Of a stretch of DNA of 64,000 nt, positions 739 to 62,702 are shown piece by piece. Origin of the DNA: a virus; IMG/VR virus record IMGVR_UViG_3300009155_000048, positions 1 to 64,000 of that record; one strand, given 5' to 3'. Made by a program: the position numbers and the translations under genes. Positions within the stretch are counted from its first letter, which is position 1. Each line of letters opens with the position of its first letter. The notes beneath the pieces were generated by a model that saw nothing but the letters and a program-made list of their open reading frames with translations, had not been told where the DNA came from and searched no databases.

Positions 739-1212
739 TTACTTTAGAAGAGTGTCTATTTTTACATCACGTAAATATGACACTCTTTCTCTTTTGTATG
801 TATCTATAGCATTTCCCCAATTTGGATTTATAGAAGGACTTGCACTATTTAAAGTTAATTGATCATAATATAATCTTAATAAATTACTACCTTCTATAAT
901 TAAATCCTCACCATGTAAATCCATTTGTTGTAAAAATTGACCAGTAGCATTATAAACCACAACAACAACTGAAAACATATCTCTTTTACAACCCTTTAAA
1001 TTATAGTCAAAGAAAACATCATCATATTGAATCTCAATATACTTTTTTTGTGGAGTAGGACCATACATTCTTTTTGACTCTTTATAAGAACTAGTGTTTA
1101 CTTCTTCTTTAAGATTCATATCAATAATAGAATCATCTTCTATTACCATAAAATATGGTTCACTAAAAAGATAAACTTCATAGTAATATTCTGATCTTGG
1201 CTTACTTTGCAT
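739..1212 (-). CDS. Degenerate tail-tube (gp19)-like protein with C-terminal RDVKIDTLLK tail
   Basis: YKESKRMYG.P and G.K.D...VVVYNATG segments resemble jumbo-phage tail tube proteins (from memory); shared tail motif. Confidence 0.45.
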   Translation of the reverse strand: MQSKPRSEYYYEVYLFSEPYFMVIEDDSIIDMNLKEEVNTSSYKESKRMYGPTPQKKYIEIQYDDVFFDYNLKGCKRDMFSVVVVVYNATGQFLQQMDLHGEDLIIEGSNLLRLYYDQLTLNSASPSINPNWGNAIDTYKRERVSYLRDVKIDTLLK

Positions 1213-1408
1213 TTTCTAAAACCTTTTTAATTTTCTTAGACCTTCTTTGTTGTTTGGTTTCTAAGATACCATATCTACTTTTAAGAACACTTTTGGGATT
1301 GAAATTTGAGTCTATTACAATAGGCTCGGATTCTTTAATAATATATGGAGCCCAAACATATCCAGGTTCAATACCTTTTCCTTTTTTACCAATTAAAACT
1401 CTATCCAT
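1202..1408 (-). CDS. Mini-protein: C-terminal fragment of major capsid protein plus basic tail
   Basis: 17/49 ungapped identities to MCP segment NRIVIGRK...RSRYAVAE encoded in this window. Confidence 0.8.
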   Translation of the reverse strand: MDRVLIGKKGKGIEPGYVWAPYIIKESEPIVIDSNFNPKSVLKSRYGILETKQQRRSKKIKKVLENAK

Positions 1409-6781: not shown

Positions 6782-6810
6782 AAAATCCTCAAATTTCTTT
6801 GAGGATTCTT
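6781..6810. terminator. Bidirectional intrinsic terminator-like hairpin
   Basis: AATCCTCAAA-tttc-TTTGAGGATT between convergent genes. Confidence 0.65.
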
Positions 6811-6944
6811 TCTATCTTCCACTTTCTACTTTTAATTTTCCACTTAGTGAACTCTTTACTATAAATTTGTTCATCATAGATTCGACCACCGTGTGTTTTT
6901 TGATTAAACTGAACAATCACACCTTCAAGGATATATCTATCCAT
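6789..6944 (-). CDS. Unannotated 51-aa mini-protein: N-terminal fragment of prohead protease plus SRKWKIERILKEI tail
   Basis: MDRYILEGVIVQFNQKTHGGRIY... has 9/21 identities to gp21 DYILGGIFTEFGVKNRNERIY; TAATG coupling to upstream gene. Confidence 0.75.
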   Translation of the reverse strand: MDRYILEGVIVQFNQKTHGGRIYDEQIYSKEFTKWKIKSRKWKIERILKEI

Positions 6945-28000: not shown

Positions 28001-28525
28001 TTAGAAATCAATATCGAAAAAATCTAACTTATTACCACTTGAGTCAGTGACCATTAAATCAGAGTTTCTTAGAATCTGTGCCTCATAATATTTACCAACA
28101 CGGAATAAAGTTCTAATAAAAGGAATATCATCACTATTTTTATCAATTCTTTCAGAGTCAATCATTAGACAAAGAACTCTTCTATCATCTTCTGGGTTAT
28201 AGTTGATAACATTTTCATCCATGTCTTTCTCTGCTCCTTTCTTAGCATAACAAATAAATTTGGTTTCTAATGTTTCACCAGAAACAACATATTTAATATT
28301 GACATTTGTATCTGGTTTAATATCTACTTCCTCATTTAGATATACTCTAACCCAAAAGTAAACTTTCTGAGATTCTACTATTTCATTTCTTGGTTTAAAA
28401 TCAACACCACTATAATCAACTTTATCTAAATCAATTGACTTAGCTTGTTCAACTAAGCTATTAACATAATTTTGTTGAATTTCTTTTCTATCCGGAAAGG
28501 GATTAAAAACTCCAGGTTTATTCAT
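28001..28525 (-). CDS. Hypothetical protein
   Basis: 174-aa ORF with TAATATATA upstream. Confidence 0.6.
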   Translation of the reverse strand: MNKPGVFNPFPDRKEIQQNYVNSLVEQAKSIDLDKVDYSGVDFKPRNEIVESQKVYFWVRVYLNEEVDIKPDTNVNIKYVVSGETLETKFICYAKKGAEKDMDENVINYNPEDDRRVLCLMIDSERIDKNSDDIPFIRTLFRVGKYYEAQILRNSDLMVTDSSGNKLDFFDIDF

Positions 28526-34875: not shown

Positions 34876-35309
34876 ATAGATATAGAAGGATTGATTTTAT
34901 CAACTCTTTTTTCATGCCTACCACCCTCAAATTCCGTGTCTAAAAATACCTCTACTATTCCAATTGCTTCTTCAATTGAAATAAATCTAGCAGGTAAACA
35001 CAAAACATTAGCATTATTATGTTGTCTAGCTAGTGAAGCAATCTCACTATTCCAACAAAGAGCAGCTCTAATATCTCTCCATTTATTCGCAGTCATACAA
35101 ATACCATTTCCGGTACCACAGATTAGAATACCAATAACAGATTCTTCATCTAAAATTGAAGCAGTAACAGCATGTGCATAATCTGGATAATCTACACTTT
35201 CAGTAGATTCAGGTCCAAAATCAATTACAGGGACTCCTTGTTCGGAAATCCAATTAATTAAGGCTTCTTTCATTTCATAACCAGCATGGTCAGATCCAAT
35301 TGCAATCAT
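34872..35309 (-). CDS. rpiB: Ribose-5-phosphate isomerase B
   Basis: GSDHAG, VDYPD, CGTGNG, ARQHNNANVL, FEGGRH. Confidence 0.95.
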   Translation of the reverse strand: MIAIGSDHAGYEMKEALINWISEQGVPVIDFGPESTESVDYPDYAHAVTASILDEESVIGILICGTGNGICMTANKWRDIRAALCWNSEIASLARQHNNANVLCLPARFISIEEAIGIVEVFLDTEFEGGRHEKRVDKINPSISI

Positions 35310-36004
35310 AATAATTCATCTAATTTTCTATCTCTATTAATTTGGACATATTTAGCATTATATTCATTCACATAGTGAAGATTAATAAAGTTATTTTTAT
35401 TTAAAACAATTTGATAATTTAATTGTGATATAAATTTCGGCCCACTCAACGAAGTGGTGTTAATATTTGAAGCCACCGGTTCATCAATTTCATAATTATA
35501 ATTAAATGAGTCTTCTTTACCACAAATGATTGTCTTATCATCCCATCGCTTGAAAGCATCTATATAAACAGATATACCTCCAATTTCACCTAATTTATAA
35601 AAAGTATTACTATTACTTACCTTATTTATAGATTCATTGTGGAATAAAACAGATTCTTGAGCAAACATTCCAATTTGAGATGAACAAATGATAAAATCAA
35701 AGTTATTTTCTTTTAGATAATGATAGAGTACACCCATACCATCCGATTCGGATAAATTCATAACATCTAAGAATTCCTCTGATGTAGATTTCATTTCCTT
35801 AAATATTTCTTTATGAAATGATTGAGACAATTCTTGTATCAATAAAGAATTATATTTCGCATCAATATCTAATTTTAGATTAAATGCGTTTTGAAGTGAT
35901 ACCATTTCATCTCTAGTGATAGACATAGATACTTGTATTTTCTGTGATACCGGGAGTCTTTTATCCAACACTCCTAATTTTAATAATTCTGAATTAATTT
36001 GCAT
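35306..36004 (-). CDS. Truncated major-capsid paralog (C-terminal half) with RDRKLDELL tail
   Basis: SLLIQELSQSFHKEI and YKLGEIGGISVYID align to MCP SILVNELSQTISKQI and YPVGQIGDIQIYVD. Confidence 0.75.
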   Translation of the reverse strand: MQINSELLKLGVLDKRLPVSQKIQVSMSITRDEMVSLQNAFNLKLDIDAKYNSLLIQELSQSFHKEIFKEMKSTSEEFLDVMNLSESDGMGVLYHYLKENNFDFIICSSQIGMFAQESVLFHNESINKVSNSNTFYKLGEIGGISVYIDAFKRWDDKTIICGKEDSFNYNYEIDEPVASNINTTSLSGPKFISQLNYQIVLNKNNFINLHYVNEYNAKYVQINRDRKLDELL

Positions 36005-41687: not shown

Positions 41688-42080
41688 TTATTTTTTAGAT
41701 ACGGTTATTTCATAAGCATTGTTATAATCAACCTTAACTTGTCCAGGATTCATACCTTGTTCTTTTTTAACAAACTTCTTTTTACAGTAAACAATAAGAA
41801 CATCTTCTTTATCCGACTTAGAATTCTTAGCAGATATTTGTGCTACCTTTTTAATAACTTCTTTTGTTGGTATCATATCTTTAACTTTAATTAAAACATG
41901 GCTTCCAGGAACACCTTTGGCATGAAACCAGTAATCCTCATCTGATGATAATTCAAATGTTACATAATCATTAGACTTAGCATCTTTACCTTGATAAACA
42001 ATAAACCCATCAACATCTAATTTCTTATAGTTTGGTTTATCTAATTTCTTAGACTCATTAAAATTCTTTAAGTATTTCAT
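41688..42080 (-). CDS. Stand-alone NFACT-R (RqcH/FbpA C-terminal, DUF814) domain protein
   Basis: GKDAKSNDYVT...DYWFHAKGVPGSHVLI...YCKKKFVKK..G..PGQV. Confidence 0.88.
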   Translation of the reverse strand: MKYLKNFNESKKLDKPNYKKLDVDGFIVYQGKDAKSNDYVTFELSSDEDYWFHAKGVPGSHVLIKVKDMIPTKEVIKKVAQISAKNSKSDKEDVLIVYCKKKFVKKEQGMNPGQVKVDYNNAYEITVSKK

Positions 42081-42243: not shown

Positions 42244-43554
42244 ATGTCTAAACTAATGAAACTTAACGAAATTCAAGACGAGTCTGTATTAAATGATATC
42301 TTTAATAATGAGATAATAATATTTGAAGATATACAAGGTAGTAAAATATATGTAAACTGGAATGGTTCCAATTTTACAATTAAATCAAAATCATTATCAT
42401 CGGATCCTATCAATATGATTGATTTAGCTATGCAAAATTATTATAATAATGCTATTAGTTTTTTTAATAATCTTGATAACAGAGTTAAAGGATTGATTAA
42501 TAAAAAATGGTGGTTTTGTTTTGAATTTTTCCCAGATAATCAACCAGCAAATATTGAATACAATAGAGTTCCTAAAAATAATTTAGTCTTAACTTCTATC
42601 TACAAAGGTAACAAATTTGATTATACCATTGATGAATTAGAAGAATATGCTAGATTACTTGATGTTGATGTAATTCCGGTAATTTTCAAAGGCAAACTAA
42701 ATGAAAAAGTTATAGAAGCAATTAAATATTTCTTAAACACAAGTGAGTCAGACTTAGAATATGTATTTGGCGAGAAGTCATTTTCTTACTTCTTCTATAA
42801 AATATTAAGTCCACAAACTCAAAATTCATTTTTGATGAATGAAGACTTTCAAAAAAATGTTGAGAAGTTAATAATAAGAATTGATGGTAAAGATGTATCA
42901 TTTGAAATTTTGAATCCATTATATAAAAGAATATCGGACACAAACTCAACAGACTTTGTTGAAATTTACACACTTATATTAGTTAATTTCTTGAATTTCT
43001 GTCAATCAATAGACTTTAATCAAATTAAAGTAAAGGGAAATAAAAGAGATGAAGTTTATATCTATTTAATTTGTAAGTTATTCAATATGTACTTATCGGA
43101 AGTAAAAGATGATATTGCTAATTTTCAATTTACTGTACCCGAATTCTTTGATAAAGATAAATTTAGAATTAACACAGAGTTGATTCCAAATAAAATGACT
43201 AAACAATTCATTTCAGAGGATAAAAAGTTTGAATATATTTTCAAAGTAATTTTAGGTAGTTTCAATAAGAAGAGAAAGAAACCAATTGGCGTATTCACAG
43301 AAGGAACAATTAACATATTTAACAATTTTGTACAAATGATACAAGAAAAAATTGATGAATTCTTTAACAAAAAAAGTGAGATTGAATTAACCAGAAGTGG
43401 ACTAATTGACTTCTCACAATGGTTTGATGTTAAATATGATGTGGATGCGGAAGAAAATGTTTATCCAGATGTATATACCGAATTAGAAAAAGGTAAGGAA
43501 AAAGATAAAAAAGGAACAAAGGGTGGAAAGTTTGGAGAATATGAAAAGAAATAA
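42244..43554 (+). CDS. RNA-ligase (Rnl2)-like fold protein lacking the motif I lysine
   Basis: FEDIQGS (motif I-like), FCFEFF, LLDVDVIPVIFKG, VEKLIIR. Confidence 0.55.
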   Translation: MSKLMKLNEIQDESVLNDIFNNEIIIFEDIQGSKIYVNWNGSNFTIKSKSLSSDPINMIDLAMQNYYNNAISFFNNLDNRVKGLINKKWWFCFEFFPDNQPANIEYNRVPKNNLVLTSIYKGNKFDYTIDELEEYARLLDVDVIPVIFKGKLNEKVIEAIKYFLNTSESDLEYVFGEKSFSYFFYKILSPQTQNSFLMNEDFQKNVEKLIIRIDGKDVSFEILNPLYKRISDTNSTDFVEIYTLILVNFLNFCQSIDFNQIKVKGNKRDEVYIYLICKLFNMYLSEVKDDIANFQFTVPEFFDKDKFRINTELIPNKMTKQFISEDKKFEYIFKVILGSFNKKRKKPIGVFTEGTINIFNNFVQMIQEKIDEFFNKKSEIELTRSGLIDFSQWFDVKYDVDAEENVYPDVYTELEKGKEKDKKGTKGGKFGEYEKK

Positions 43555-43714
43555 TATAGGTGGAGTATTTAAGGTTAATGCAACGGTAACAAAAACTATG
43601 ATTGAAGACTTAGAGAAACAACACGGGATTGATTTAGTCCAAAGATTGGAGAGTTTACTTGTTTTATTAACAGTTAGAAGACACCGAATTGAAAAAATAT
43701 TATCTAAAATTTAA
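43541..43714 (+). CDS. Mini-protein: major-capsid spine-helix fragment plus RRHRIEKILSKI tail
   Basis: 13/32 ungapped identities to MCP IEVSSALRRTEIEDIKANTGMDIVQKMESILV. Confidence 0.78.
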   Translation: MKRNNIGGVFKVNATVTKTMIEDLEKQHGIDLVQRLESLLVLLTVRRHRIEKILSKI

Positions 43715-43845
43715 TGCCATCTGCTCTTATATCAAAACCAAATAATTGGAGTATTTTATTGAAATATAAGAGAAGAGAAAAGTTGACTAAAATCTTAAAT
43801 AAAATATTAAAAACAATTTCGGTAAATTACATTATAATTGTATGA
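43714..43845 (+). CDS. Unannotated 43-aa peptide with RREKLTKIL motif
   Basis: TAATG and ATGA coupling on both sides; MPSALISKPNNWSILLKYKRREKLTKILNKIL... Confidence 0.55.
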   Translation: MPSALISKPNNWSILLKYKRREKLTKILNKILKTISVNYIIIV

Positions 43846-45065
43846 TCCAAGTAAAAGAGTATAAACCGAAATCTAAATACAACATAAGAAAAAAGTTAGA
43901 GTCAAAAAGATACAGTGTTCAATTTCTACCCGAACTTCTAATTCAAGAATCTCTTAATAAAAACTTCACATACAAAGAAACTAAGCTTAAAACAGCTTAT
44001 CTAATTGATATCACACACAATTTATTACTTAAATACTACTTCAAGAAAGATAACTTATTTAATCTATCATCAGTAGTTCTTAAAGAAAAATATGGTTATC
44101 TATATAACTATTATATGGACTATCTTGTTTCTAAAGACATTCTTAAACTAGTAAAAAATCACCAAAAAGGTAAAAATGCCAGAATCTATAAATTAAATGA
44201 AAAGATTATTAATGGTAAAATCACTCGATATAAAAATGAGGATTCAATCCTATTAAAGAAATACAAGAATGCTGTATCTTTAATTGAGAAACAAGATATA
44301 GACAGTAATACAATCAATCCAGATGTAAAGAGAAAATTAGTTGATGATTTATTTCATGTTCAAATTCAATTTGATAAGGCTATATTTTTCTTAGATTCAA
44401 CTCTACAAGATGTAGATATCTATAATAGAAATAAGTATAGTGTTGAATGTATAAATGATAAACACATATTCTATCACTTTGATAACTATGGCAGAATGCA
44501 CACAAATTTTACTATTTTAAAATCTTTTATTAGAAAAAATTGTCTTCTTATTAATGGAGAAGAAACCAGTGAAATTGATATCAAAAATAGTCAACCATTA
44601 TTTCTCTGTAAGTTAATAGAATCCGATGGTTTAATAATTGTCAATACTGATGAATTTGAACTTTTCAAATTTTTGACATATAATGGTAAGTTCTATCAAT
44701 ACTTAATGGATAATTCCAAGTATAGAGATAGAAAAAATGTTAAAGAAATGATTTATAAGGTTTTTTTTGGTAAGAACTTCAAAAGCAAAGGTGATGATTT
44801 ATTTAAATCATTATTTCCTACAATACATGAATTTATCAAAATCTACAAAAAAGAACATGGTGATTATAGAATTTTAGCACATGACCTTCAAAATTTAGAA
44901 AGCAATCTAATTTTTAACAAAATTGTAAAGGAGATCATGTATATATACCCTGAGGTAAATTTAATAACTATACATGATAGTATTATTTGTAATACAAAAT
45001 ATAGAGATGTGGTTGAAAAGATTTTCCACAAAAACTTAGAAAAAGAATTTCAAAAAATAATATAA
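43842..45065 (+). CDS. Small family-A-like polymerase-fold protein
   Basis: GRMHT, EIDIKNSQP (motif A-like), RKNVK...FFG (B-like), LQNLES, IHDS (C-like). Confidence 0.6.
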   Translation: MIQVKEYKPKSKYNIRKKLESKRYSVQFLPELLIQESLNKNFTYKETKLKTAYLIDITHNLLLKYYFKKDNLFNLSSVVLKEKYGYLYNYYMDYLVSKDILKLVKNHQKGKNARIYKLNEKIINGKITRYKNEDSILLKKYKNAVSLIEKQDIDSNTINPDVKRKLVDDLFHVQIQFDKAIFFLDSTLQDVDIYNRNKYSVECINDKHIFYHFDNYGRMHTNFTILKSFIRKNCLLINGEETSEIDIKNSQPLFLCKLIESDGLIIVNTDEFELFKFLTYNGKFYQYLMDNSKYRDRKNVKEMIYKVFFGKNFKSKGDDLFKSLFPTIHEFIKIYKKEHGDYRILAHDLQNLESNLIFNKIVKEIMYIYPEVNLITIHDSIICNTKYRDVVEKIFHKNLEKEFQKII

Positions 45066-46623: not shown

Positions 46624-46717
46624 GCAATTTTTTTATTTTTTATTTATATAATGATATTTGAATTTTGTTTGATATATTCAAATAAATAACCTATATTTGC
46701 TGTTTATATATAATTAT

Positions 46718-47278
46718 ATGATTGATTTATCCAAAGGACTAAGTTTATTTATATCAAATGATAACCAAATTGAACTATGTTTATCCAGTCTGACTAACTT
46801 TTTATCAGAAGAATACACAGTTTTAACTTTCTCTTTTGGCAAAGATAAATTTGGATTATCACCAACAGAAGATAACTTTAAAGAACAAGTTAAAAAGAAT
46901 CTCTTTAGAGTTGAAATGCTAGTAGTTCACCTTAACTATAAATTAAAGAATTATACTGACTTTTTCAATTTTTTAACAAGTTTAAATCTTATAGTCTTTA
47001 TAGTGACACCACGATCTAAATCAGATATTTTGTTAGATAACTCCGGTAGTTACATTAGAAACTTCTATGAGGTTAAAGATAATCCAGATTATTTAACATC
47101 AAGTCTTAAAAGGTTTTCAAATCTAACAATTACAAATATTGATTTGGATTCTTTACCCGATAAATATTTAATCAAAAATATTAATACTGATGAAGAGTTC
47201 ACAGTAAGTCAATATAAGAAATCTTATATTAGAGATAAGAAAATTGACATTTTTTTAGATGATAATGACCAGGATTAA
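46718..47278 (+). CDS. Hypothetical protein (possibly degenerate RecA/DnaB fold) with IRDKKIDIFL tail
   Basis: Tail motif clear; fold resemblance weak. Confidence 0.55.
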   Translation: MIDLSKGLSLFISNDNQIELCLSSLTNFLSEEYTVLTFSFGKDKFGLSPTEDNFKEQVKKNLFRVEMLVVHLNYKLKNYTDFFNFLTSLNLIVFIVTPRSKSDILLDNSGSYIRNFYEVKDNPDYLTSSLKRFSNLTITNIDLDSLPDKYLIKNINTDEEFTVSQYKKSYIRDKKIDIFLDDNDQD

Positions 47279-52344: not shown

Positions 52345-54096
52345 TTAGTTAAGTAATCCAGGAGTATCAGACACTTTAATTGTCATATACTGCTTTTGAG
52401 GATACCAACCCACTTCAGCAACTGCGTATCTAGATCTTAACAACATACGTGGAGCGAATGTAGCTTCAGAGATGATACTGATTGACTGAGCCATTAAGTA
52501 AGGTACGAAGATGATACCTGGTTGATCAGGATTGTTCTTTCTACCAATAACGATACGGTTATCGTTATACTTCATGTAAGGGTCAACATAGATTTGGATA
52601 TCACCGATTTGACCAACTGGATACAATTGACCAGAACCGTTGATTTTAGATTTAGTTGGATTAATAGTATATCCAGCGACATCCATTAAAGCTGCAGCTA
52701 AACCTCCGTTAGTTACTGCGAATTGTGCAGGACCAACACGACCTTCTGTTGCAATATAGTTAGAAGCGTGAACCATCTTAGTGATCAACTTACGTTGAAC
52801 AGCGTGTGTAGTTTCACCACCAACTTGAGTTTGAGTGTAAAGAGTATCTAAGTCAAAAATAGTTGGACTAGAGATGTTATTGCTATAAGTAGCACCAGAT
52901 GCTGGAGCTGAAGATCTGTTCAAGTCACCCATTTCAAAGATTTTAGATACAATTTGTTTAGAAATTGTTTGAGACAATTCGTTAACAAGGATAGATTCCA
53001 TTTTTTGAACGATATCCATACCAGTGTTAGCTTTGATGTCTTCAATTTCAGTTCTTCTAAGAGCTGAAGATACTTCAATAGTACCAACCGCGATAGACTT
53101 AGTAGAAACTTTTGGTCCAATTACACCAGCATAAGTCAAATCATCTTCAGCACGACTCATTGGGTATCTACCATTCTGAGAGTTTGTAGAGAAGTTTGTA
53201 GAGAAACCTGGTAATTGATCTTCTAATGCAGAAATCATAGTAACAGTTAAGTTAGAAGTACTTGAGAAAGTAAGACCAGGAATAGCTGTTAATTGAGACT
53301 GGATTGTAGCAGAAGGAGTAAATGTATTTTGAGTTTGGTCAAAAGCTGCTGCTGCTGGGTTATAAACGTTAGCAATTGTTTGTGAACCAATAGTAGCATT
53401 TGCTTGTCTAAATGCTCTGAAGATAGGAAGACCATCGATACGAGAGTAACCTAAGAATTCAAGAACGTTAGCTTTAGAACCACTAATAGATGTACCTGTT
53501 GAAACAGATGCAGCATAGTTACCTAAAGTAAAGTAAGCCTTAGTACCAGTAGCACTTTGGAAACCACCAACTGTTAAAACGATATCAGTTGAAGAAATTG
53601 CAGTTGAAACTTTAGTACCAAACGCACCACTTTGTAACATACCAGCTGTATCAGTTGAGTTAGTTGATACGATTTTAAATACTTGAGGTGCACCATATGT
53701 AGTATCAACATCATCATATTGGAAGTCAATATACAATAAGTCTAATTTTGGACCTGGTGAAGGTTTTACAGCAACTAAATCTAAACCGATTGTTTGAGCT
53801 GCGATTTTCATAGCAACTGGTAATAAGTTTTGACCTAAGTCACCAGAACCAGCCGAACCTGAGTTACTTGACCAGTTAGTACCAAGTGTAGTACCTGATA
53901 AAGTTGATGGTTGAGGAGATGTAACTGCACCCATACCTTGGATTGTTGCGTTTACATACGCATTTTCATTGATAGAGTGGAACTCTGCGTATTCTGACAT
54001 CCAATCAAGTCTGTCTTCACCAGCAACGCCCATGTTCTCTAATACTGGAGACCACTTCTTCAATGCTTTTTGTTTGTCTATTCTAATGTGTGACAT
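52345..54096 (-). CDS. Major capsid protein (T4 gp23-like)
   Basis: KKWSPVLE, IAAQTIGLDLVAVKP, VDPY, PY...F.PRMLLRSRY; follows protease gene. Confidence 0.92.
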   Translation of the reverse strand: MSHIRIDKQKALKKWSPVLENMGVAGEDRLDWMSEYAEFHSINENAYVNATIQGMGAVTSPQPSTLSGTTLGTNWSSNSGSAGSGDLGQNLLPVAMKIAAQTIGLDLVAVKPSPGPKLDLLYIDFQYDDVDTTYGAPQVFKIVSTNSTDTAGMLQSGAFGTKVSTAISSTDIVLTVGGFQSATGTKAYFTLGNYAASVSTGTSISGSKANVLEFLGYSRIDGLPIFRAFRQANATIGSQTIANVYNPAAAAFDQTQNTFTPSATIQSQLTAIPGLTFSSTSNLTVTMISALEDQLPGFSTNFSTNSQNGRYPMSRAEDDLTYAGVIGPKVSTKSIAVGTIEVSSALRRTEIEDIKANTGMDIVQKMESILVNELSQTISKQIVSKIFEMGDLNRSSAPASGATYSNNISSPTIFDLDTLYTQTQVGGETTHAVQRKLITKMVHASNYIATEGRVGPAQFAVTNGGLAAALMDVAGYTINPTKSKINGSGQLYPVGQIGDIQIYVDPYMKYNDNRIVIGRKNNPDQPGIIFVPYLMAQSISIISEATFAPRMLLRSRYAVAEVGWYPQKQYMTIKVSDTPGLLN

Positions 54097-54130: not shown

Positions 54131-54184
54131 TATATAGTATCCTATTTTTCCTTAATTTTTCAAGGGTGGATTTTTTATAGATTA
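54131..54184 (-). promoter_or_regulatory. Promoter with CTATAAAAAATCC-N31-TATATA (major capsid gene)
   Basis: Exact 29-nt repeat with 11241-11269. Confidence 0.6.
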
Positions 54185-56293
54185 AAGATTTTTGAATCTC
54201 TCCATAATTGCAGTTACATCACCATCAGACAATTTGTCTTCTTGAATTAACGCATTATGTTCAACTAATTTTTTAGTTACAGATTCATTTTTCTTGAATG
54301 GTCTTGTTAACCAGAAATGTTCAACTTTTGATTCAGTTGTTAAGTCTGGGTACAATCTAGCTTGCGATAAGATAGACTTTTTAGAAGATTCATTCAATTG
54401 TGACCAGATTGGCTTAATGTTTTCAGGCATCAATCTAATCAATCTCTCTTCAAGAGATTCATTTTTAACAGATAACGCTTCTCCAATCATCTTTAACACA
54501 TCAGAACTAGTGAAATAACTCTTTTCGTTTATGTAAAGTTTTACTTGTTCTTGCTCCTCGTTTGTTAAGCTGTAATAGCTATCAACTTGGGACTTGTTTA
54601 AGAATTTTAAGAAATGTAAATCATTGGACTCAGAAACTTTACGTTTTTTAGCTTCTTCAATTAATTTATCAATTTGTTGAGATAATTCTGTATCAGAATT
54701 GCCTTCGAATTTAGATTCTTCTCCATAAGGATTTTCCTCTTCTTTTTCATGTGCCATTGGCATTCCCGGCATTCCTTCTTCTTCACCATATGTACCTTCT
54801 TCTGAAGCTACTAAGTGAGGCATACCTTCTTCTTCCTCTTCTTCATATGCCATTGGCATTCCTTCTTCTTCTGAAGCAATCATTTCAAATCCTACTTCTT
54901 CTAAAGTTGGGAATGAATTACCTTTACTTTCATTTAATTTATTACCATTTAATTTCTCAGCAATTAAACCCGCGTAAGAAACAGTTTTATCTAAGTTTTC
55001 AGCAATATACTCAGAGTAAGCGATGTTATCATCTAAGTGTTCAGCAATGTATTCAGAGTAAGCGATGTTACCTTCTACATGCTCAGCTAAATATTCAGAA
55101 TAAGCAATAGAGTTATCTACATGCTCAGCGATATACTCAGAGTAAGCAATATTCTTATCTAAGTTTTCAGCGATGTACTCAGAGTAAGCAATATTCTTAT
55201 CTAAGTTTTCAGCGATGTACTCAGAGTAAGCAATATTCTTATCTAAGTTCTCAGCTAAATATTCAGAATAAGTGATATTCTTATCAACATTCTCAGCTAA
55301 ATATTCAGAGTAAGAAATATTTTTGTCTAAGTTTTCAGCTAAGTACTCAGAATAAGTGATGTTCTTATCTAAGTTTTCAGCTAAGTATTCAGTGTAATTA
55401 ACAGCCTTTTCTAAGTTTTCAGCTAAATAATCATTGTGAGAGATCAACTTATCAGTAGTTGATTTCAATGATTTATTTTCATTAACCACAACTTGAACTT
55501 TTTCAGCTAAGTAATCTAAATACTTAACCATTTGAGAGTTAGTCTTATTAAGTTCTTCATAGTACTCAAGAAGTTGCTCTAATTTTTTCGGATTGATGTT
55601 ACCTGATTTAATAGCAGATTGTGCAGCTTTCTTAGTAGTAGCGATTTCATTAATCAAATACTTAGAATAGTCAGCTAATTGCTGTTTGGTAACGAAGTCA
55701 TTCTGGTTCATATTGAATAGTTCGTTTATTTTTGACTCATCGGACATTTCATATATCCTAAAGTTAGTTTTATTGGAAAACCCATATGATTCATTTATGG
55801 ATTTCATTCTAGCTGAAGCAAATCCTGGGTCAGCAACAATGTCGTAAGTAAACAATTTCTTTAAAGTAACAGTACCATCTGATTCAGTGATACCAGCAGC
55901 TCTTGAAGAAACGAATACAGGACAACCATCATCAACTAAAGATTTAGCTTCTTTACCCCAATAGGTATTCAATAATTTAATCTCACCCTCAACACGATTA
56001 GATTCTTTAACATAAGAAGCTTTTCTAATAATGTGTGAAGCGCGAGATAATGATGTATCAAATACATCTGGGTGATCGAATTCACCATAAACAACACCCA
56101 TATTTTGAATACGGTCATTAAGTTCTTCTAAACAAGGAATAAACTTATCTGCAGTGTAGATTCTTTCATTACGGTTTTTAACACCGAACTCAGTAAAAAT
56201 ACCACCTAAGATATAGTCTTTCTTGCCACCAGAAACTTGAACGCTCTCCTTTAATGGGTTTGAGTTGTTTTCAACGATTAAGATTGGTTTCAT
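54182..56293 (-). CDS. Prohead protease (gp21-like) fused to repeat scaffold/core protein
   Basis: KNRNERIY, GEFDHP, VSSRAAG, YDIVADPGF; then 14-aa repeats and acidic region. Confidence 0.9.
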   Translation of the reverse strand: MKPILIVENNSNPLKESVQVSGGKKDYILGGIFTEFGVKNRNERIYTADKFIPCLEELNDRIQNMGVVYGEFDHPDVFDTSLSRASHIIRKASYVKESNRVEGEIKLLNTYWGKEAKSLVDDGCPVFVSSRAAGITESDGTVTLKKLFTYDIVADPGFASARMKSINESYGFSNKTNFRIYEMSDESKINELFNMNQNDFVTKQQLADYSKYLINEIATTKKAAQSAIKSGNINPKKLEQLLEYYEELNKTNSQMVKYLDYLAEKVQVVVNENKSLKSTTDKLISHNDYLAENLEKAVNYTEYLAENLDKNITYSEYLAENLDKNISYSEYLAENVDKNITYSEYLAENLDKNIAYSEYIAENLDKNIAYSEYIAENLDKNIAYSEYIAEHVDNSIAYSEYLAEHVEGNIAYSEYIAEHLDDNIAYSEYIAENLDKTVSYAGLIAEKLNGNKLNESKGNSFPTLEEVGFEMIASEEEGMPMAYEEEEEEGMPHLVASEEGTYGEEEGMPGMPMAHEKEEENPYGEESKFEGNSDTELSQQIDKLIEEAKKRKVSESNDLHFLKFLNKSQVDSYYSLTNEEQEQVKLYINEKSYFTSSDVLKMIGEALSVKNESLEERLIRLMPENIKPIWSQLNESSKKSILSQARLYPDLTTESKVEHFWLTRPFKKNESVTKKLVEHNALIQEDKLSDGDVTAIMERFKNL
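54955..55440 (-). repeat. About 12 coding tandem repeats of 42 nt (YSEY[LI]AENLDKNIA)
   Basis: Directly visible in DNA and protein. Confidence 0.9.
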
Positions 56294-57287: not shown

Positions 57288-58994
57288 TTAGAATTCAAAT
57301 TCAGCACCTTCACCACCAGCTTCTCCGCCACCACCTTCACCACCCGGTTCTGGACCAGCCTCCGGAGTTGTTTGAGCTCCTCCTTCAGGGGCAGCTTGAG
57401 CACCACCTTCGGCACCAGGTTCACCACCTTCAGCACCAGCTTCAGCACCACCTTCTGGGCCAGCACCACCGCCTTTACCAGATTTAATCCAATAGGCTTT
57501 ATTTTCTTCTTTTTCTTCTGGTGTCAATTTCATAACTTTATCAATTAAATAATCAATATGGAAATATGGTTGGCCATCAGCAGTTTGAATTCCCAACATA
57601 GTGCCTAAAATACTAGCTCTCTTTTCAAAATTTGCCAACTTTTTCCACTCTTCAAATAATTGATTTGAATTAAAATTGATATCTACTTGGTTTAAGAATA
57701 TCTCATCATTTTTCAATTCTGGAAATTCCATACACATTTGTAATTTAAGTGGTTTAACAATTAATTCTTTATAGTTAGCTCTTAAACGGTTAATAAAGTT
57801 ATTAAATTTAACTTCATCTCTAGTCATCTCAGCCGCATCACTAAATACATTACCACCACCATTTTCTTTATCAAATCTTTGGAAAGGAATTTTAGATGCT
57901 CTTTTTAAGATATTAAAGAACCAAGTTAACATATCATTCTCATTTAAGTTGTGACCTTCCGGTGAGACTAATTCCATACCAGGTGTACCAGCATCTCCTT
58001 CTGGGAACCACACTTGTTTATTATATGGTAAATGTTTTCTACCATTTATAGTAACAGTACCCAATGTATCATCCCATTCAACTTCTTCCGAGTAATCAGC
58101 AATTAATTGACCAATTTGTTCTTCAGCACGTTGTCTAGGTAAACCTTTAATTGGAATAGTAAACTTTTGATAAACAGTAGCGTTGATAATATTGAACATA
58201 ATTTTAGTTTGTTCAAGAATCTTTAACTGATTATATGGTTTAATTAAACCCTCAAGATATGAAGTTTCAGAATAATCATTCTGTGTTGAATATGAAATAA
58301 ATACCAATTGAGAATCTAAGAAGATTCTTCTTAATTGTGGATCCTCTGGATATTGAATCCAAAGATTACCAATAGATGGCTCATATGCTGGAACTAATGT
58401 TTCGGGTCTTAGTCTATTAAAGTGAATAATATTTTTTTTCTTATCATCCCAAACAATTTCAATTGCAATATAACCATCAATTAAGAAGTCTTTCATCATA
58501 TTCCAAGCAGTGATATTATCACCAAATCCAAATCTATTATAAATAATTTCAAAATACTCTTGATACTTATCCTTAATATCTTGTGAGTAGTCATTTGATA
58601 AAGGTCTAGGTGAACAAAAATCATTCTCATTATAGATAATTGCCTCATCGGAAACCGATGAAACAAAATCTCTTAATTCATCCTTAATTGAATATTCTCT
58701 TAAAATTCTTCTCTTATCAGCATAACTTCTATCTAAATACGGAACCGACTTTCTATTAAGAACAGACGCAACCGCTTTGGATGAAAAGAAATCATACATC
58801 GAATTATTTTTCTGACTGTACGGATCCTCATTAATACCAACACCGACAGTGTTTCTGATAATCATATCATCATACTTCATACCGAAGTTTGATAAATTAC
58901 GAAGCAATCTATTAAAAAGACCCTTATTCTCAACCGCAGATGAGATATAAGTAGAATTTTGATTTTGTTGATTTAGCGGATTATAAGAAGCCAT
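57288..58994 (-). CDS. Portal protein (T4 gp20-like)
   Basis: SYLE..IKPYNQLKILE, ASKIPF.RF, EMTRDEVKF..FI.RLR; G/E/A/P-rich tail. Confidence 0.92.
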   Translation of the reverse strand: MASYNPLNQQNQNSTYISSAVENKGLFNRLLRNLSNFGMKYDDMIIRNTVGVGINEDPYSQKNNSMYDFFSSKAVASVLNRKSVPYLDRSYADKRRILREYSIKDELRDFVSSVSDEAIIYNENDFCSPRPLSNDYSQDIKDKYQEYFEIIYNRFGFGDNITAWNMMKDFLIDGYIAIEIVWDDKKKNIIHFNRLRPETLVPAYEPSIGNLWIQYPEDPQLRRIFLDSQLVFISYSTQNDYSETSYLEGLIKPYNQLKILEQTKIMFNIINATVYQKFTIPIKGLPRQRAEEQIGQLIADYSEEVEWDDTLGTVTINGRKHLPYNKQVWFPEGDAGTPGMELVSPEGHNLNENDMLTWFFNILKRASKIPFQRFDKENGGGNVFSDAAEMTRDEVKFNNFINRLRANYKELIVKPLKLQMCMEFPELKNDEIFLNQVDINFNSNQLFEEWKKLANFEKRASILGTMLGIQTADGQPYFHIDYLIDKVMKLTPEEKEENKAYWIKSGKGGGAGPEGGAEAGAEGGEPGAEGGAQAAPEGGAQTTPEAGPEPGGEGGGGEAGGEGAEFEF

Positions 58995-62155: not shown

Positions 62156-62187
62156 AGAAAAACCTCTCAAATTTGAGAGGTTTTTTT
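62156..62187. terminator. Bidirectional terminator
   Basis: AAAACCTCTCAA/TTGAGAGGTTTT. Confidence 0.75.
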
Positions 62188-62337
62188 AATTTTATTAAAT
62201 ATTTTATTTATTTTTCTAATTCTAACTTCTTGTTTTGTTTCATATTGAATACTAACTTTAGCATCAACAAAAGAAGGTTGTGATACAACATCTTGTATAA
62301 AGTCAGACCAATTATATTGTGCGAAGTTCTTGGACAT
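62167..62337 (-). CDS. Unannotated 56-aa mini-protein with ETKQEVRIRKINKIF tail
   Basis: TAATG-coupled to sigma gene; ETKQ..R..KI.K[IV] matches 1202-1408. Confidence 0.65.
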   Translation of the reverse strand: MSKNFAQYNWSDFIQDVVSQPSFVDAKVSIQYETKQEVRIRKINKIFNKIKKTSQI

Positions 62338-62702
62338 TAAATTGAGTGAAGACCCATTCCATCATTACTTGATTCAATACTAATCAATCTAATTTGATGG
62401 TCATTATCACCTTTCTTTTTATAAAGTTCATTATAACCTTTAGCAATACCACGTTTGAATACTTCTGTAAAGTAAGCGAAAGCATTATCAGATTTTTCCT
62501 CATTGAAGTTATACCAATTAGAAAACATATCTAACAGACCAGATTGATAACAATCCATTCTATCATCATTGTTATAATATCTCATTTTTTTAATTGTTCT
62601 TTTAGCAAGAATCTCTAACATCAATTTAGATTTGTTAGTTAATTTTCCTTGTGCTTTTGACACTATGATCTCGACAAAGAGATCTTTATTATGTAAGTAA
62701 AT
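62337..62702 (-). CDS. Late sigma factor (T4 gp55-like); probable non-AUG (ATT) start at 62702
   Basis: YLHNKDL N-motif upstream of the GTG call; NFNEEKSDNAFAYFT. Confidence 0.8.
   Translation of the reverse strand: MYLHNKDLFVEIIVSKAQGKLTNKSKLMLEILAKRTIKKMRYYNNDDRMDCYQSGLLDMFSNWYNFNEEKSDNAFAYFTEVFKRGIAKGYNELYKKKGDNDHQIRLISIESSNDGMGLHSI

Follow-up and report, generated by a model that had tools for sequence, protein, structure and literature searches.

A 57-codon open reading frame, ORF1, was found in a DNA fragment of an uncultured "huge" phage (IMG/VR record IMGVR_UViG_3300009155_000048, 107 kb as a whole), of which positions 1 to 64,000, hereafter called the window, were analyzed. By comparative sequence analysis ORF1 was shown to be a genuine protein-coding gene and a divergent member of a large family. 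Each family member was shown to reproduce, as a separate small protein, one piece of a Gp23-type major capsid protein (MCP), followed by a basic amphipathic helix carrying a C-terminal tag. Directly behind ORF1 lies a second mini-ORF of 43 codons, ORF2, which is probably what is left of a second family copy after truncation. The features discussed below are collected in Table 1.

Table 1. Positions of the capsid-piece mini-genes, their neighbours and related features (numbering of the window)
Feature	Coordinates	Strand	Remarks
Upstream conserved 436-aa gene	42244..43554	+	overlaps ORF1 start by 14 nt
ORF1, 57 aa	43541..43714	+	copy of a piece of a Gp23-type capsid protein, with C-terminal tag
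MCP-like core of ORF1, residues 8-41	43562..43663	+	strand end, short acidic helix, turn and start of long helix; aligns to MCP 338-371
Tag region of ORF1, residues 46-57	43676..43711	+	motif R-x-x-R-I-x-K-I-L, 3 residues from end
ORF2, 43 aa	43714..43845	+	lineage-specific orphan, coupled on both sides
Helix-end-plus-tag match in ORF2, residues 13-31	43750..43806	+	alignment to the family member of locus L012
Downstream conserved 407-aa gene, possibly family-A polymerase palm-like	43842..45065	+	motifs read by eye; nearest Atlas cluster
Resident MCP, 583 aa, Pfam Gp23	52345..54096	-	PF07068, E=1.8e-27
MCP segment resembled by ORF1, residues 338-371	52984..53085	-	BLASTP/tblastn to ORF1
Sister mini-gene, 68 aa, MCP P-domain strands and P loop, same kind of tag	1202..1408	-	BLASTP to MCP 513-561, E=3e-12
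Shortened MCP paralogue, 232 aa, tag at the very C-terminus	35306..36004	-	BLASTP to MCP 340-521, E=3e-9, 61-residue gap
Tagged mini-ORF, 51 aa, weak likeness to N-terminal part of prohead protease	6789..6944	-	phrog_207, E=0.018
Tagged mini-ORF, 56 aa, coupled behind a short gp55-like sigma gene	62167..62337	-	tail compared with the A1 profile

ORF1 and its family

Both ORFs were found where the preliminary description had placed them, and the TAATG that couples ORF1 to ORF2 was present at their junction. The stop codon of ORF2 in turn overlaps the start codon of the next gene in the sequence ATGA. Translation from the ATG of ORF1, which has GGAG 5 nt upstream, gives 57 residues, and translation from an upstream GTG would give 63. 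Neither the product of the 436-aa gene nor that of the 407-aa gene had a match in Pfam, PHROG or PDB. The Atlas cluster nearest to the 407-aa product bears the automatic name family-A polymerase palm domain protein (score 0.97), and the protein is possibly of this kind.

With the 436-aa gene as bait, 76 syntenic loci were gathered. In 53 of 77 related loci an intact copy of the ORF1 gene was present in synteny, flanked by these two conserved genes; ORF1 itself occupies this slot, is coupled to the gene upstream and falls within the length range of the family. The homologues fell into 365 or more protein clusters (63-75 aa), and a precomputed PF07068 hit was on record for almost every one of them; members as a whole are 53-75 aa long and come from huge phages of about 0.25-0.8 Mb whose head genes are of the T4 type. 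When a family profile (alignment A1) was made without the window's copy, ORF1 ranked first of 1715 frames with E=3.9e-7. The dN/dS ratios in close pairs were 0.16-0.6 (median 0.51; 97% of pairs below 1), which indicates that the family is under purifying selection, although only a moderate one. Conservation in relatives had been proposed as a check on the two mini-genes, and for ORF1 it is seen in the intact copies and in these ratios.

The gene was absent from about 20 of the 77 loci, a decayed copy was seen in locus L011, and two near-complete relatives had no capsid fragment of any kind. A gene of the ORF1 type is therefore dispensable. In a tree of the flanking genes the window fell in a clade in which 11 of 13 rows lacked the gene, with four further intact copies counted later. 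A clean independent gain of the ORF1/ORF2 pair in the window is weakened by these further copies and by the decayed copy in L011. At the 5' end of ORF1 the window and L003, a 99% relative, show a recombination mosaic. No paper was found that describes a mini-gene design of a capsid piece joined to a shared tag.

The resident MCP was the sole full-length Gp23 match in the record. In the preliminary description a similarity of 13/32 identities between ORF1 and the MCP had been reported, and this similarity proved significant: pairwise BLASTP aligned ORF1 to MCP 338-371 with 14/34 identities and 76% positives (E=1e-8), and tblastn of ORF1 against the whole 107-kb record gave the same MCP segment with E=8e-7. 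ORF1 by itself had no Pfam hit at E<=0.01. The family profile matched T4 gp23 residues 258-301 with E=3e-7 and gp24 with E=3e-3, and hhalign to MCP 338-393 gave E=5.5e-5. Residues 258-301 of T4 gp23 comprise a strand, a short acidic helix of the P domain, a turn and the start of the spine helix. The earlier label of a capsid spine-helix mimic was consequently right as to the capsid mimicry, which is seen in a conserved and selected family, and too narrow as to the spine helix, of which only the first part is copied together with the strand, the acidic helix and the turn.

The MCP 338-371 segment is nearly invariant among 80 clade MCPs. At the DNA level, the ORF1 core and the MCP gene are 57% identical, with 16/34 identities at third positions; the core was therefore not recently copied from the MCP gene, and recent gene conversion was ruled out. 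A template/variable repeat pair of a diversity-generating retroelement was also rejected, as the near-identical DNA repeat was absent. Most family members are closer to T4-like MCPs, while the window's ORF1 is closer to the resident MCP. No second full-length Gp23 paralogue from which the T4-like excerpts could derive was found: ten near-complete or long relatives each had one full-length MCP per genome.

An AF2 model of ORF1 (pLDDT 78.5) consisted of coil (residues 1-17) and two helices (18-28 and 32-56). In the model of the resident MCP, which was of low confidence (pLDDT 52), a strand at 336-345 and helices at 348-357 and 362-394 were predicted, and the order of predicted secondary structure at the matching place was the same in both. 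The family profile aligns to T4 gp23 and gp24 (PF07068; PDB 5vf3, 6uzc, 7vrt, 7vs5, 8t9r, 1yue), but the part represented amounts to only some 45 of more than 500 residues, a basic tag is added, and the ORF1 gene lies among unrelated genes at a distance from the head genes. The N-arm, E-loop hairpin, insertion domain, A domain and P-domain sheet are all missing from ORF1, so it cannot form the HK97 fold, and as coil plus two helices with about 45 parent residues it did not pass as a complete one. ORF1 is an excerpt of a capsid protein and not a capsid protein in its own right.

Other fragments of head proteins were found in the window. The product of the 68-aa sister mini-gene scored 25.7 bits against Pfam Gp23, which is above the cut-off, and maps to about residues 436-479 of T4 gp23. 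For the 51-aa mini-ORF, tblastn gave a match to 56156-56215 with E=0.12. The 56-aa mini-ORF showed slight similarity to the gene of the prohead protease (E=0.011), and its tail matched the tail of the A1 profile with E=0.003 genome-wide. It was ruled out as a split C-terminus of gp55, an arrangement that would have put the tag at the position for clamp binding, as the end of the sigma protein is identical in 80 relatives and the slot downstream is variable.

The C-terminal tag

In these phages the tag takes the form R-x-x-K-[IL]-x-x-[ILV]-[LF] and is found on many unrelated proteins. Enrichment of the motif at C-termini was 17-fold in this record (p=4e-8) and 20-fold in the relative G002 (p=4e-31). 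The tag is defined by a motif within about 12 residues of the C-terminus, as in ORF1; in ORF2 it lies 15 residues from the end, which is borderline. The tag is the best conserved part of the ORF1 family, with R46 invariant and I50 more than 90% conserved in alignment A1, and the codons of the conserved residues vary synonymously across relatives. The tail is a real C-terminal tag, conserved at the protein level. The tail was also considered as a DNA-level element, for instance a late promoter, and rejected: of 34 relatives only 2-4 had the octamer TATAAATA within the tail, there was no enrichment of it in the window (23 occurrences against 18 expected), and the use of several synonymous codons at the conserved Arg and Ile positions also counts against such an element.

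The tail had been suggested to be an autonomous module. Across the proteome this holds, since the C-termini of unrelated ORFs are enriched in it, and a different MCP fragment also ends in the tag though its parent sequence has no such tail. Within ORF1 the tail is not cleanly separable: the prediction has one unbroken helix, of which the tail forms the final third, and an alignment of the tail to the spine helix of the MCP is also possible.

The second mini-ORF

ORF2 was found only as itself, on five contigs, in a collection of 5.8 billion proteins, and among the related loci only in the window and L003. Its likeness to the ORF1 tail was weak (protein score 37, reached in 7/2000 shuffles; DNA p about 0.03-0.06), and the family HMM did not recruit it (E=4 genome-wide and 0.9 within the slot). 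A better match was obtained to the syntenic mini-protein of L012/L013, where ORF2 residues 13-31 aligned to residues 46-64 of the L012 protein with 10/19 identities (0/5000 shuffles, family-wise p=0.006). The part matched is the C-terminal helix with the tag; the N-terminal 12 residues of ORF2 match nothing. A plain tandem duplication of the 3' half of ORF1 is only weakly supported. From these alignments, ORF2 probably arose by truncation of a second family copy, of which the last helix turns and the tag were kept. The chance of an open 45-codon frame of ORF2-like composition was about 0.006. ORF2, which may or may not be translated, is an orphan of one lineage, and the earlier term "near tail-only peptide" is apt as a description of it.

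Possible functions of the tagged capsid pieces

In T4, the head-length mutations A268V, A275T, D285V and D287V/N adjoin the short acidic helix by which a capsomer touches its neighbours, and a further group, T457A, R460C and G461S, is in the P loop (Fang et al. 2022, PMC9546572). The piece copied by the ORF1 family and the 68-aa excerpt, with its P-domain strands and P loop, correspond to these two clusters, and D23, a near-invariant acidic residue of the family, is located in the short acidic helix. The function that we infer and favour for ORF1 is that of an interface mimic with a common handle. The mini-protein would dock on a complementary basic patch of capsomers and thereby cap or tune the lattice contacts, and the tag would couple it to a common reader. 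Such a mimic could be a chaperone of assembly, or a modulator of size, for the capsid protein of the phage itself, and the T4-like members that make up most of the family could inhibit a foreign capsid protein. A tagged capsid-piece gene acting as an interface mimic, with ORF2 derived from a second copy by truncation, is the best explanation overall, if a tentative one.

Several observations bear on this proposal. The interface argument rests on homology to T4 because the model of the resident MCP is poor, and neither single-sequence nor clade-profile searches of the MCP against PDB gave a match. Most members are biased towards T4-like MCPs, which is hard to reconcile with a role in assembly of the phage's own capsid; the bias of the window's copy is the reverse. 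A helical peptide of 57 residues without the rest of the P domain may also present the acidic helix differently from the capsid.

The scaffolding or size-redirecting proteins P22 gp8, the 80-alpha scaffold, SaPI1 CpmB and P4 Sid bind the capsid protein via a C-terminal helix. By analogy, ORF1 would resemble them as a small helical protein proposed to bind a capsid surface and to change how capsomers join. Unlike ORF1, they are not copies of an MCP and carry no proteome-wide tag.

An alternative explanation, judged unlikely, is that the excerpt is an immune decoy. It would imitate an MCP surface seen by a sensor of host defence and soak up or block that sensor, with the tag as its link to a shared handling system. 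Bacterial defences that respond to capsid proteins are known, as seen for CapRel (PMC9712102) and for the Avs families, which sense MCP folds (bioRxiv 10.64898/2026.01.04.697583). Nowhere are Gp23-type proteins more conserved than in the pieces copied, the same tag is found on fragments of several head proteins (MCP and prohead protease), and the genes are accessory, patchy and fast-evolving like many counter-defence genes. However, there is no known sensor for this MCP segment, and decoys made of fragments are not mentioned in the capsid-sensing papers found. A free fragment might equally trigger the sensor as block it, and mimicry of T4-like MCPs in most members would be odd for shielding the phage's own MCP.

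Somewhat less likely still is that the tag is a degron, or a peptide tethering an adaptor, for a phage Clp-type protease. The mini-protein would then be short-lived or would be an adaptor delivering bound MCP. The proteome-wide and C-terminal occurrence of the tag and its conservation above the rest of the family are consistent with this, and ClpP genes were found in four of four near-complete relatives. ClpP is also encoded by the relative G001, in which tagged proteins are few and capsid fragments absent, and its presence therefore does not discriminate. Classical ssrA-type degrons are moreover unlike this basic, helical tag.

It is improbable that ORF1 and ORF2 are gene debris, that is, non-functional leftovers of capsid-gene recombination that are still open. 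The restriction of ORF2 to one lineage, the decayed copies in relatives such as L011, the loci that lack the gene and the recombination mosaic at the 5' end of ORF1 would all be expected of debris. For ORF1 this explanation is opposed by purifying selection across the family, by the hundreds of clusters and by the conservation of length, start coupling and tag with turnover of synonymous codons. For ORF2 it is opposed by a frame that stays open over precisely the interval between two genes and overlaps their start and stop signals with its own, at the low chance given above.

The least probable explanation is that the tag is the clade's version of the C-terminal peptide by which T4 proteins bind the gp45 sliding clamp, with the mini-proteins competing at the clamp for replication or late transcription: as in the T4/RB69 clamp clients gp43, gp55 and gp33, a short C-terminal peptide is common to unrelated proteins and would be read by one hub, its hydrophobic spacing (positions 4, 7 and 8) is like that of PIP-like motifs and the tails ending gp43 and gp55, the tagged ORF at 46697-47278 ends in a gp55-like acidic stretch and the gene of the gp55-like sigma is immediately followed by a tagged mini-ORF. 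However, T4-type tails are hydrophobic and acidic (PMC2988020) whereas the ORF1 tail is strongly basic and does not qualify as one, canonical acidic tails are already present on the 28001-28525 product and on the PolB of relatives, the 56-aa ORF is no split gp55 C-terminus, and no gp45-type clamp domain was detected in five genomes.

The interface mimic with a common handle thus stays the favoured function. A broader proposal, which is doubtful at present, is that huge phages run a system of modular mimicry. Contact-forming excerpts of head proteins (the acidic helix and the P loop of the MCP, and pieces of the prohead protease) would each be fused to one proteome-wide address tag, and would control growth of the capsid lattice or poison the assembly of co-infecting T4-like phages via a common tag reader. 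Such excerpts would be repeatedly generated and replaced at the same slots.

The idea is directly testable in T4-type model phages because the pieces map to the two clusters of T4 head-length mutations. If it is true, huge phages would make small regulators or weapons from the exact surface pieces that hold the capsid lattice together, combined with a shared handle. This would be a new route to control or sabotage the assembly of very large capsids, and would provide a natural, ready-made set of peptide inhibitors for the lattice contacts of the HK97 fold. The occurrence of the tag throughout the proteome further points to a system for sorting or turnover, as yet undescribed, in the largest phages known.

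Mini-gene locus and family

The record is 107 kb long, an estimated 19% or so of a genome, and the window (29% G+C) is its first 64 kb. Among public sequences it is closest to uncultured "huge" phages, 634-735 kb in size. T4-type head genes are present in the window and are listed in the table, where the part of the prohead protease beyond its protease domain may be a fused scaffold-like region. The short gp55-like sigma has identical final residues in 80 relatives and therefore has no equivalent of the C-terminal segment with which T4 gp55 binds the clamp.

Features of the window (aa, length of product; MCP, resident major capsid protein)
Feature	Position	Strand	aa	Remarks
Tagged ORF	739-1212	-	157	residues 52-66 weakly like MCP ~112-130 (tblastn E=1)
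Tagged excerpt of MCP P-loop region	1202-1408	-	68	overlaps start of 157-aa tagged ORF
Tagged mini-ORFs weakly like parts of the prohead-protease gene	6789-6944, 62167-62337	-		phrog_207 E=0.018; tblastn E=0.12 and 0.011
Acidic-tailed product	28001-28525	-	174	
Shortened MCP paralogue	35306-36004	-	232	spine helix and P-domain strands kept, most of A domain deleted, tag at very end
RNA-binding protein	41688-42080	-	130	NFACT-R_1 domain, E=1.9e-14
ORF1	43541-43714	+	57	capsid-like mini-gene
ORF2	43714-43845	+	43	mini-ORF
Conserved gene downstream of mini-genes	43842-45065	+	407	motifs (by eye) spaced like motifs A, B, C of family-A polymerase / T7 RNA polymerase
MCP, Gp23-type	52345-54096	-	583	PF07068, E=1.8e-27
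Prohead protease with long extension	54182-56293	-	703	phrog_207 E=4e-31; weak Peptidase_S77; protease domain in first ~340 residues
Portal, T4-type	57288-58994			
Late sigma, gp55-like, short	62337-62663	-	108	length from called GTG

ORF1 overlaps the 3' end of a conserved 436-aa gene by 14 nt, and GGAG stands 5 nt ahead of the ORF1 start codon. The TAATG coupling of ORF1 to ORF2 in the preliminary description was borne out, as the ORF2 start codon lies within the TAATG closing ORF1 (43714). The ORF2 stop, which ends at 43845, lies within the ATGA opening the 407-aa gene. Pfam, PHROGs and PDB sequence searches returned nothing for this gene; its nearest Atlas cluster is auto-named family-A polymerase palm-domain protein (score 0.97). 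Compared with the 99%-identical related locus L003, a dense substitution cluster and a 3-nt indel at 43495-43590 cover the end of the 436-aa gene and ORF1 codons 1-15, with near-identity beyond, a pattern that looks like a recombination mosaic. The slot between the 436-aa and 407-aa genes holds other insertions in two relatives, a stretch of odd composition in locus L004 (4310-5170), with the polymerase-like gene absent within 1.5 kb, and a 555-nt insert with frames of low-complexity repeats in locus L008 (4320-4900).

Seventy-six loci were gathered via the 436-aa gene, 77 counting the window. Conservation in relatives had been proposed as a check, and in a profile-based census of the slot an intact small ORF was found in 53 of the 77 loci, including the window. 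L011 has a decayed remnant, as does L015 at a contig end, and about 20 loci have no copy. The alignment of 32 sequences runs from a conserved strand-like N-terminus through an acidic motif, its Asp nearly invariant, and an H-x-x-D turn to a basic C-terminal stretch, in which the first Arg is invariant and an Ile is more than 90% conserved. With a profile excluding the window and L003, ORF1 ranked first of 1715 record frames (E=3.9e-7). The family profile matched 365 clusters of 63-75 aa in a 5.8-billion-protein collection; nearly all carry a precomputed PF07068 hit and none is informatively named. dN/dS was 0.16-0.6 in close pairs, with a median of 0.51 over 428 pairs and 97% of values below 1. 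ORF1 is a member of a large family under selection; that it is plain debris is unlikely.

Capsid element and origin of the ORF1 copy

The claimed capsid likeness of ORF1 proved to be real, because the ungapped alignment to MCP 338-371 (14/34 identities, 76% positives) is significant both pairwise (E=1e-8) and against a six-frame translation of the whole record (E=8e-7). The family profile matched residues 258-301 of T4 gp23 with E=3e-7 to 1e-6, and gp24 with 3e-3. T4 capsomer neighbours are joined at quasi-threefold axes in two ways, by hydrophobic contacts of the P loops and by a short negatively charged P-domain helix making charge contacts to a basic P-domain strand region (Fang et al. 2022, PMC9546572). 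The head-length mutations A268V, A275T, D285V and D287V/N adjoin this helix, T457, R460 and G461 form a second length-mutation cluster, and G292, V306 and V307 lie within the spine helix (Fang et al. 2022, PMC9546572). By the profile match and these T4 sites, the excerpt comprises a strand, the short acidic helix, a turn and the beginning of the spine helix. ORF1 had been described as a spine-helix mimic; part of that helix is indeed copied, but not alone. In an AF2 model of ORF1 built with the family alignment (pLDDT 78.5), residues 1-17 are coil, residues 18-28 form a helix, and residues 32-56 form a single long helix. The MCP model was weak (pLDDT 52), but the corresponding part of it has a strand (336-345) followed by two helices (348-357 and 362-394).

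Most family members resemble T4 gp23 258-301 (mean BLOSUM score 69) more than their clade's own MCP (mean 43), whereas in the window, L003 and L014 the resident MCP is favoured (81 versus 38 in the window). With a typical member as tblastn query, 1813 cultured T4-like phages gave hits in their MCP genes, with identity of up to 51%; with ORF1, none of them did. Since the clade MCP profile found nothing in the PDB at E<=0.01 and the MCP segment matched by ORF1 is almost invariant across 80 clade MCPs, the T4-like majority is not a copy of the present resident gene. ORF1, with 57% DNA identity to the MCP gene in its core, looks like an old copy of the resident gene. In a quick flanking-gene tree, the window and L003 fell in a well-supported 13-row clade whose other 11 rows are without an intact copy; the decayed L011 copy fell outside it, and at least 5-8 gains or losses were required overall. 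The history of the window copy may be one of fresh gain or of repeated loss.

C-terminal tag, ORF2 and other excerpts

The basic tail of ORF1 (R-x-x-R-I-x-K-I-L) is the last third of its single long helix in the model, and the hhalign family-MCP alignment continues across it to MCP 372-393 (E=5.5e-5). The motif class [RK]-x-x-[KR]-[ILV]-x-x-[ILVF]-[LFY], defined after cases were seen, is 17 times commoner in the last 13 ORF residues than elsewhere in the record (8 versus 9 hits, p=4e-8). The enrichment was 20-fold in G002, a relative (33 ORFs, p=4e-31), and 8-fold in another relative, G001. Across relatives, the conserved residues of the tag are encoded by several synonymous codons, and constraint therefore acts at the protein level. 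The 68-aa ORF at 1202-1408 is a copy of MCP 513-561 (E=3e-12) followed by the same kind of tail, which is quite unlike the C-terminus of the MCP itself. The tail, which had been suggested to be an autonomous module, is therefore a tag that is both real and portable, although within the ORF1 family it does not form a structural unit of its own. In relatives, tagged mini-ORFs other than that at 62167-62337 are found in the slot that follows the gp55-like gene.

Among related loci, ORF2 is restricted to the window and L003, where the copy is identical. Only self-matches, on five contigs, were found in the same large protein collection, and the sequence was not found as a repeat elsewhere. Similarity to the ORF1 tail is weak, and the family HMM was below significance. 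In the syntenic T4-type member of L012/L013, the final turns of the helix and the tag are matched by ORF2 residues 13-31 (10/19 identities, 0/5000 shuffles, family-wise p=0.006). Most simply, ORF2 would have arisen by truncation of a second copy from the family. Plain debris is possible for ORF2, although the chance of an open 45-codon frame at its composition is about 0.006 and it is coupled at both ends.

Clade-profile alignment by hhalign placed MCP 351-559 on gp23 275-479, and the 1202-1408 product therefore corresponds to about T4 residues 436-479. This region comprises P-domain strands and the P loop, and includes A455 and the second length-mutation cluster. Because the excerpts map to gp23 258-301 and ~436-479, the two families match the two sides of the same inter-capsomer contact. 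In scans with the Pfam Gp23 model, each of ten near-complete or long relatives had a single full-length MCP; short fragments numbered one to six in eight of these genomes and were absent from the remaining two. Counterparts of the shortened MCP paralogue, of 250-265 aa, occur in relatives.

Proposed role

Possible alternatives to the capsid-binding role proposed below are an immune decoy and a degron or adaptor read by Clp; ClpP was found in 4/4 near-complete relatives, but a relative with few tags has it as well. A sliding-clamp client tail is unlikely because T4-type tails are acidic and the phage has canonical acidic tails of its own. The 174-aa product ends in a hydrophobic-acidic peptide very like T4/RB69 clamp-binding tails, and the relatives' PolB genes end in a similar motif; a gp45-type clamp domain (PF09116) was not detected in five genomes.

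In a limited literature search, no account of tagged capsid excerpts that stand alone was found. Three points are added here: both excerpt families map onto the two T4 length-mutation clusters, ORF1 is of a resident-like subtype, and a truncated, tail-only ORF2 follows it. As a mini-protein, ORF1 is conserved and under selection, reproduces an element of the contact between capsomers, and bears a tag found across the proteome. Such a mini-protein would bind the complementary surface of capsid-protein capsomers and thereby cap or tune lattice contacts, while the tag would link it to a shared reader.
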